From: a virus
Lineage: Monodnaviria > Loebvirae > Hofneiviricota > Faserviricetes > Tubulavirales > Inoviridae
IMG/VR virus record: IMGVR_UViG_2671180963_000001
Coordinates: 1-10,481 of that record
Strand: one strand, 5' to 3'
DNA length: 10,481 nucleotides
A program made the translations under genes and the position numbers. The notes below the pieces were generated by a model. The model made no database searches, had not been told where the DNA came from, and saw nothing but the letters and a program-made list of their open reading frames with translations. Positions 8,751-8,816 of this stretch are shown here, piece by piece (the stretch's first letter is position 1; every line of letters begins with the position of its first letter).

Positions 8751-8786
8751 AGGCCGCTGCGAGAGAGATTTTCGCAGCGGCCTTTT
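8751..8786 (+). terminator. Rho-independent terminator (12-bp perfect stem AGGCCGCTGCGA/TCGCAGCGGCCT, 9-nt loop, TTTT)
   Basis: Perfect inverted repeat 8751..8762 / 8772..8783 followed by TTTT. It lies after the 364-aa ORF stop and immediately abuts the dif-like site. Confidence 0.6.
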
Positions 8787-8816
8787 CAACATAACGTGTC
8801 GTACATTATGCGCACC
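8784..8816. other. Hybrid dif-like XerC/XerD recombination site (prophage-chromosome junction)
   Basis: 8806..8816 TTATGCGCACC is the exact reverse complement of the E. coli dif XerC arm GGTGCGCATAA. Central region 8800..8805 is CGTACA against TATACA in dif. The XerD-arm position 8789..8799 matches dif 6/11; a better XerD-like arm (9/11) sits at 8784..8794, implying an 11-bp spacer. The 76-bp gap to the hipA stop equals the dif-hipA spacing I recall for K-12. Confidence 0.6.

Follow-up and report, generated by a model that had tools for sequence, protein, structure and literature searches.

In the window (the whole stretch of DNA analyzed, 10,481 nucleotides), a short sequence beside hipA matches one arm of the Escherichia coli dif site exactly and the other arm only in part, raising the question of what this sequence is and how it came to lie there. 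The hybrid site, hereafter called site B, and its chromosomal surroundings consist of the following features.

8784..8794, minus strand: phage XerD-like arm TTATGTTGAAA, a 9/11 match to the dif XerD arm
8795..8805, minus strand: phage-derived central (overlap) region of 11 nt, TGTACGACACG, which begins with TGT/TGTA as does dif TGTATA
8806..8816, minus strand: XerC-binding arm GGTGCGCATAA, the half of the hybrid that is chromosomal and continues into the native dif-hipA flank
8817..8892, no strand: native chromosomal spacer of 76 bp from dif to the hipA stop, identical to K-12
8893..10215, minus strand: hipA, toxin kinase, chromosomal landmark (Pfam HipA_C and Couple_hipA; RefSeq annotation of relatives)
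10215..10481, minus strand: hipB, antitoxin, chromosomal landmark (Pfam HTH_3; RefSeq annotation)

Site B (8784-8816) reads tttcaacataa-cgtgtcgtaca-ttatgcgcacc on the plus strand and GGTGCGCATAA / TGTACGACACG / TTATGTTGAAA on the minus strand. The original prediction, made from the letters of this DNA, held that the XerC arm is a perfect dif match lying 76 bp from the hipA stop, as in K-12. Both points were borne out: GGTGCGCATAA occurred as an exact match only once in the window, at 8806-8816 (by hand arithmetic, about 0.005 exact 11-mers are expected by chance in 2 x 10.5 kb), and the gap of 76 bp to the hipA stop codon (8893-8895) is the same in K-12 MG1655, where dif occupies positions 4751-4778 of locus L003 and hipA begins at 4855. 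Alignment with K-12, which had been proposed as a check, showed that the window follows K-12 without interruption from TACATTATGCGCACC (8802-8816) up to hipA, while the sequence further left is unrelated. The junction is thus located where the XerC arm meets the central region, whose first four nucleotides in dif, TGTA, are common to phage and chromosome. The claim that the central region and the XerD arm have been replaced was therefore mostly right and slightly overstated, since TGTA is kept. The better XerD-like arm that had been noticed 5 bp further out, implying an 11-bp spacer, was confirmed as well, with 9/11 matches at the 11-nt spacing versus 6/11, counted by hand, at the canonical 6-nt spacing. 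Such matches are not significant on their own, as 12 with two mismatches were found in the window versus 7.5 expected.

An intact 28-bp dif at this position was the observation named beforehand as speaking against a hybrid. None was present in the 10,481-nt window with up to three mismatches allowed, and the window offered no site combining the 28-bp length, the 6-bp central region and the XerD arm TTATGTTAAAT of a functional chromosomal dif. The sequence beside hipA in this strain is thus not a functional dif. We consider site B to be the leftover junction of a filamentous phage inserted at E. coli dif via host XerC/XerD, with a probability of roughly 85%. This supports the earlier proposal that the hybrid is the product of XerC exchange between dif and an element site, in which the catalysis by XerC itself would follow from analogy. 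The junction sequence taken alone fits a single-stranded or a double-stranded substrate, and Xer exchange or homologous recombination, equally well.

As judged from its gene content, window 1-8805 is an inovirus prophage with pII, pV, coat genes, pI/Zot and the pIV secretin, and it runs on past the left edge of the window.

1..267, minus strand: HigA-family antitoxin-like gene in the distal accessory region (NCBIfam TIGR02607; RefSeq annotation)
775..2034, minus strand: pIV secretin (Pfam/PHROG searches)
1988..3013, minus strand: pI/Zot assembly ATPase (Pfam/PHROG searches)
3018..3305, minus strand: pVI-like minor coat protein, DUF2523 (Pfam/PHROG searches)
3315..4580, minus strand: putative receptor-binding minor coat protein, pIII-like (position and PHROG; 40% identity/100 aa to the Ypfφ counterpart)
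5155..5442, minus strand: ssDNA-binding protein, pV-like (Pfam/PHROG searches)
5455..6654, minus strand: rolling-circle replication initiator, pII-like (69.5% identity to the If1 homologue)
6673..7206, plus strand: HTH repressor-like gene (Pfam HTH_3, PHROG transcriptional regulator), divergent from the core like rstR in CTXφ
7218..7270, minus strand: hairpin-rich conserved intergenic element, which matches the If1 major intergenic region and marks the viral (+) strand
7628..8722, plus strand: cargo ORF of 364 aa, function unassigned (phrog_17621), with its stop 1 nt before site A (described below)

On the minus strand, the core types follow the order pII-type Rep, pV, small coat ORFs, pIII-like, pVI-like DUF2523, pI/Zot and pIV secretin, and the plus strand of the prophage carries the divergent HTH repressor and two cargo ORFs. 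No integrase was found in any ORF scanned (Pfam, PHROG) or in the RefSeq annotation of relatives, and tRNAs, tRNA-type repeats and long direct repeats were absent from the window. Boundaries formed by an integrase or by tRNA-type repeats, which had been listed as evidence that would count against integration at dif, are thus lacking here. The whole window matched E. coli chromosomes, the phage being present in 8-9 of 5426 complete genomes. A nucleotide search of deposited phage genomes returned none that was close, the sole match being 53 bp of the If1 intergenic region.

This match corresponds to the element at 7218-7270, whose 53 nt share 94% identity with a portion of the If1 major intergenic region; over 41 nt, it is also 97.6% identical to Alteromonas phage phiAFP1. 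Its conservation across very different hosts is striking, and the element is probably a packaging or replication-origin signal. The first 20 codons of the mechanical ORF 7211-7555, which it overlaps, are probably non-coding. Between this element and site A lies a cargo slot (window 7211-8722), the contents of which vary among sister prophages: MltR-like plus DUF2971, the ECs_2282 zinc-binding protein, or a different 358-aa ORF (L001 3881-5213, L002 4803-6008, L008 15360-16436). A 1.5-kb contig of Kluyvera georgiana (L017) carries a copy of the window's cargo gene together with the att module, 99% identical. PADLOC, NCBIfam and Pfam gave no function for the cargo ORFs.

At the other end of the prophage, a perfect 18-bp palindrome, ATTTGCGCATGCGCAAAT, was seen twice (292-309 and 667-684, 375 bp apart), one copy on either side of a small ORF that lies upstream of the HigA-like gene. 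The palindromes could serve this HTH protein as operators.

Scanning for XerC and XerD arms at variable spacing led to a second dif-like site next to site B, of which the original prediction made no mention.

8724..8750, plus strand: site A, inverted dif-like partner and attP2 analogue, GGTTCGCACAA-TGACG-TTATGCTAAAG, with a 5-nt central region
8751..8783, no strand: GC-rich stem of 12 bp (8751-8762 with 8772-8783) with a 9-nt loop, the apical stem of the folded attP(+)

When minus strand 8718-8822 was folded as single-stranded DNA, it was predicted to form one long hairpin of -33.4 kcal/mol (z = -8.7), and none of 200 shuffled sequences folded as well. In the predicted hairpin, the XerC arms pair with one mismatch and the XerD arms pair as well, the central region between them is unpaired and asymmetric, and the GC stem forms the apex. 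In this model, site A is what would make the hairpin a Xer substrate. The fold is in line with the folded single-stranded attachment site suggested earlier, the stem being part of the predicted hairpin together with sites A and B. A consensus fold held across 13 module variants, in which the stem is invariant and the loop variable. Covariation was weak, with a single compensatory pair (G-C to A-T, beside the XerD arm) in 35, owing to the near invariance of the stem; the divergent Vibrio module described below is more informative.

The stem had been described as a 12-bp terminator stem abutting the arm. Its length and its position directly against the XerD-like arm stand, while the terminator label found no backing in a consensus scan, which called no sites; the stem was passed over because its loop has 9 nt and only four T (TTTT) follow. 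The GC stem may nevertheless also terminate transcription of the cargo gene. That role would be its only one if Xer-mediated integration had proceeded through duplex site B alone, as in the VGJφ type, with site A and the stem merely forming a transcription terminator. The junction products would be identical, and the stem and TTTT do come just after the cargo-gene stop, but this route leaves an 11-bp spacer that is far from the 6-7 bp of duplex Xer sites, and the equivalent attP1 of CTXφ, with 12 bp, has to be folded with attP2 in order to work (PMC3089051, PMC3442271). Moreover, site A, with its recognizable XerC and XerD arms, was present beside site B in 30/30 viral-contig instances and is predicted to pair with it arm for arm in the single strand, and the consensus scan called no terminator at the stem. 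We therefore regard integration through duplex site B alone as improbable and favor a folded single-stranded substrate.

Strand polarity bears on the same point. The XerC-cleavable top strand of site B runs in the same sense as the phage core genes, and by way of the 53-nt intergenic match the XerC-cleaved strand is the equivalent of the If1 viral strand. The orientation of the prophage thus appears to be the one expected with a (+) strand hairpin as the substrate. An inovirus from a metagenome, circular and with a Rep 74% identical to that of the window (L047; 8,496 bp, 108-bp terminal repeat), has a complete attP in the interior of its genome and on the same strand as rep, and the phage therefore has its own XerC arm when unintegrated.

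The far junction and the copy number of this prophage lie outside the window; the corresponding features were seen in relatives. The closest full-length relative, LD39-1, is 99.2% identical across the whole window. It carries three tandem phage copies followed, at the distal end, by an intact dif, GGTGCGCATAATGTATATTATGTTAAAT (L004 19686-19713). The second junction had been expected to carry the chromosomal XerD arm, and in LD39-1 this arm was indeed there, within the intact, regenerated 28-bp dif. The junctions between copies were of the phage type, GGTGCGCATAA-TGTCATACGCG-TTATGTTGAAA followed by the stem and site A. A tandem array was also seen in TO73, its copies bearing different cargo.

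A mutated or mis-assembled native dif, without any recombination junction, would account for the partial match and for nothing beyond it. The same hybrid recurs in independent complete genomes with different phages, a complete prophage lies to its left, and the intact dif of LD39-1 is located elsewhere in the terminus region. An artefact or a locally mutated dif was rejected on the basis of this recurrence (213 genomes), the K-12 alignment and the intact dif of LD39-1, and we give this explanation practically no weight.

At its distal end, the phage has a XerC arm of its own and a further 43 bp, which agree with the hipA-side flank of dif at 43/43 positions in TO73 and 41/43 in LD39-1 (window 8817-8859 compared with the reverse complement of L004 19643-19685 and with L008 7529-7571). 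Phage and chromosome thus share a 58-bp segment (TACA, the XerC arm and the 43 bp), and the prophage is bracketed by a 58-bp direct repeat. As the main rival explanation, the replicative form could have entered by RecA-dependent homologous recombination through the shared 58 bp, without Xer catalysis, and a review of Ypfφ explains both the loss of copies and insertions among resident ones by homologous recombination (PMC4266046). However, 58 bp is a short substrate, and other lineages with the same att module have a graded, weaker flank match (9-23/43) yet sit at the same kind of junction. Homologous recombination also leaves the conserved partner site, the hairpin and the TGT rule unexplained. 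Finally, two flank SNPs in LD39-1 place the crossover within 17 bp that include the XerC cleavage point; in TO73, where phage and chromosomal flanks are identical, the marker is missing and crossover mapping is uninformative. We regard homologous recombination as an improbable origin of the junction. Flank-SNP crossover mapping as a test against homologous recombination was dropped, being informative in LD39-1 and not in TO73.

Candidate origins of the shared 43-bp flank are that the phage copied the chromosome, that the flank is a phage relic, or that gene conversion occurred between both. From the shared 43 bp, the XerC side of E. coli dif could be periodically overwritten by phage DNA.

Beyond the regenerated dif of LD39-1, on its XerD side (L004 19859-25600), lies an island whose first genes are a pair of neighboring tyrosine-integrase genes and a large ORF; IS-rich DNA follows. 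Because this integrase island adjoins the XerD side of the regenerated dif, dif in LD39-1 has insertion hot spots on either side. Many phage genes are frameshifted in the LD39-1 assembly, probably through sequencing errors.

We propose that integration would proceed as follows. The packaged (+) strand, equivalent to the window minus strand, would carry inverted site B (GGTGCGCATAA-11 nt-TTATGTTGAAA) and site A (GGTTCGCACAA-5 nt-TTATGCTAAAG), which would fold together around the GC stem so that both Xer arms would be duplex and the central region between them asymmetric and unpaired. Host XerC/XerD would bind this hairpin and dif, and XerC would exchange one pair of strands at the boundary of the XerC arm and the central region, an exchange that the shared TGT would stabilize. 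Replication would then resolve the pseudo-Holliday junction. On the hipA side, the chromosomal XerC arm would be followed by phage DNA comprising the 11-nt spacer, XerD-like arm, stem and site A, as in the window, and the product at the far end would join the phage XerC arm to the chromosomal central region and XerD arm, giving a regenerated functional dif able to accept more copies. The hybrid site would correspond to attL in the Ypfφ nomenclature and would persist as a non-functional dead-end scar. Integration would be effectively irreversible, since by analogy the duplex hybrid, with its 11-bp spacer, should not be a Xer substrate. New phage genomes would come from rolling-circle replication across tandem copies, and because progeny would arise in this way, the cargo gene beside the hybrid site in the hipA-proximal copy would be absent from them. 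For XerC catalysis, the single-stranded substrate, resolution by replication and irreversibility, we infer the scheme from CTXφ.

The likeness to CTXφ is close. In CTXφ, attP1 is AGTGCGTATTA-12 nt-TTATGTTGAGG and attP2 is AATGCGTATTA-7 nt-TTATGTTACGG (PMC3089051, Table II; PMC3442271), and the 12-nt central region of attP1 likewise begins with TGT (PMC3089051, Table II). Both phages have two inverted dif-like sites with a long and a short spacer (12/7 nt in CTXφ versus 11/5 nt here), TGT beside the XerC arm, and a XerD-like arm of the form TTATGTTGA.... Both att halves lie at one end of the prophage and a new dif at the other, there is no integrase, and tandem arrays are formed (PMC3089051, PMC3442271). 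The window differs from CTXφ in its E. coli host and its XerC arm GGTGCGCATAA, in the distance between the sites, 33 nt with one 12-bp stem versus about 90 nt, and in having no ctxAB; for the window phage, the mechanism is a proposed one.

The att module is nearly identical to that of Ypfφ (Y. pestis loci L012 and L024), with one central-region base and a few loop bases differing. Ypfφ and CUS-1φ, whose hosts are Yersinia pestis and E. coli O18:K1:H7, respectively, are 99% identical over 7.1 kb (PMC4266046). They resemble the window phage in integrating at dif, in regenerating an intact dif at one end and in forming tandem arrays, and they also share a variable accessory slot beside attL and a divergent repressor gene (PMC4266046). 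[quoted passage not shown] The core proteins of the Y. pestis prophage are less similar to those of the window, with amino acid identities of 53% for the secretin, 43% for Zot, 50% for pVI and 40% for the pIII-like protein. Unlike Ypfφ and CUS-1φ, the window phage has an If1-like Rep (at the 69.5% identity given above) and a different cargo gene. With such core identities and only the att module in common, it falls outside the Ypfφ/CUS-1 lineage.

Elements of the VGJφ and TLCφ/GGI types are alike in exploiting XerCD for integration at dif and in encoding no integrase. They use a single duplex attP with a central region of about 6-7 bp, and their integration is reversible (PMC4246890). The 11-nt spacer and the conserved inverted partner site set the window phage apart from the VGJφ type. 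In the TLC type, XerD makes the first exchange with an activation factor. In the Pfam scan, which covered part of the small ORFs, no XafT-like domain was detected, and both the architecture of the sites and the perfect match of the XerC arm speak against the TLCφ/GGI type. In contrast, the window encodes a rolling-circle Rep and no recombinase of its own, its dif junction lies at the XerC-arm/central boundary, its inverted attP pair is computationally predicted to fold in the (+) strand, and its spacers are unequal and over-long, with dif homology on the XerC side only. Among the relatives, dif is regenerated in LD39-1, and tandem arrays exist in LD39-1 and TO73. The window phage is thus very probably a CTX-type IMEX.

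This kind of element is already well described, and the current understanding of it is unchanged. What is new is the particular phage, an undescribed E. coli inovirus combining an If1-like replication module with a Ypfφ/CUS-1 attachment module and a different cargo gene. It would be a clean natural E. coli example of the single-strand integration scheme established for the cholera-toxin phage, and its value lies in annotation and in the diversity map of dif-integrating elements. By analogy with close relatives, the working dif of this strain would now lie at the distal end of the prophage or array, no less than about 9 kb away.

A pattern scan of one genome per species found the same module in Yersinia pestis (two sites), Kluyvera, Lelliottia, Phytobacter, Pectobacterium, Erwinia, Photorhabdus, Rosenbergiella and Izhakiella. 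Among 14 distinct variants, the arms and stem were essentially invariant, the invariance of the XerD-like arm in 14/14 being partly by construction because the search pattern fixed both XerD-like arms. The loop and the central region were variable; the latter measured 10-11 nt and started with TGT in 14/14. In a divergent module from Vibrio algivorus, the XerC arm is of the Vibrio type, the spacer measures 12 nt and the apical stem is unrelated, yet the same fold is predicted. Scan hits in Nostoc, Flavobacteriaceae and Clostridia were dismissed as chance matches without XerC arms, and a hit in a "Nanosynbacter" MAG contig as probably a misbinned enterobacterial phage contig. Near-identical att modules were found in inoviruses whose core proteins are just 40-55% identical, and the module, of about 95 nt, may be a portable unit common to otherwise unrelated Xer-exploiting elements. 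We regard it as doubtful that a portable att module and a phage-overwritten dif flank together make up a cargo-exchange network centered on dif.

In 213 of 5426 complete E. coli genomes (about 4%), a query made of the stem, site B and flank was covered at 80% or more. An att-core census gave 940 genomes and 484 plasmid places. The 940 genomes do not represent a count of phage integrations, because they mostly reflect ISKpn21-like insertion sequences (ISAba32 subgroup, IS1202 family). Like the phage, these insertion sequences occupy the dif locus, where they lie 5 bp from the XerC arm, and they carry a site A copy, the GC stem and the XerD-like arm between a passenger gene and IRR. They are unlike the phage in being transposase driven, with inverted repeats and 5-bp target duplications (bioRxiv 10.1101/2022.12.17.520857). 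Copies at dif showed clear inverted repeats and an AACAT duplication. The half att module was found in this form in hundreds of E. coli plasmids, and the half attP carried by ISKpn21-like insertion sequences accounts for the hundreds of plasmid att-core matches. Units of transposase, cargo and att were considered as decayed phage remnants and rejected, since their boundaries showed ISKpn21-like insertion sequences with inverted repeats and 5-bp duplications.

ISKpn21-like elements were located at L006 6313-9139, L005 2324-5139 and L007 8355-11120, with none in the window. Their passengers are an STM4504/Abi-like protein or a SIR2 deacylase, followed directly by site A, the stem, the XerD-like arm and IRR, and the spacing from passenger stop to site A is that of the window phage. 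The passenger module looks like inovirus cargo plus a half attP captured by the insertion sequence, or the reverse. As far as we found, the IS1202-family paper (bioRxiv 10.1101/2022.12.17.520857) makes no mention of a passenger with a half attP. In Phytobacter sp. V91 (L011 5030-5124 and its right flank), the ISKpn21-like IRL TGTAGTAGCTCAATACTAATGTCTATTTGTGG lies 5 bp past a phage-type XerC arm, and because this IRL adjoins a phage-type site, ISKpn21-like insertion sequences also target phage-associated Xer sites.

A literature search on IMEXs at hipA-dif returned nothing relevant. Strain 2021CK-01361 carries a different hipA-side hybrid, AGTGCGCATAA-TGTGTTGA-ACATGTTAAAT with an 8-bp spacer (L006 12320-12349), which bounds an element coding for a protein with a TolA C-terminal domain. 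The hipA-side dif locus thus seems to be used by Xer-exploiting elements of a second, different type as well.
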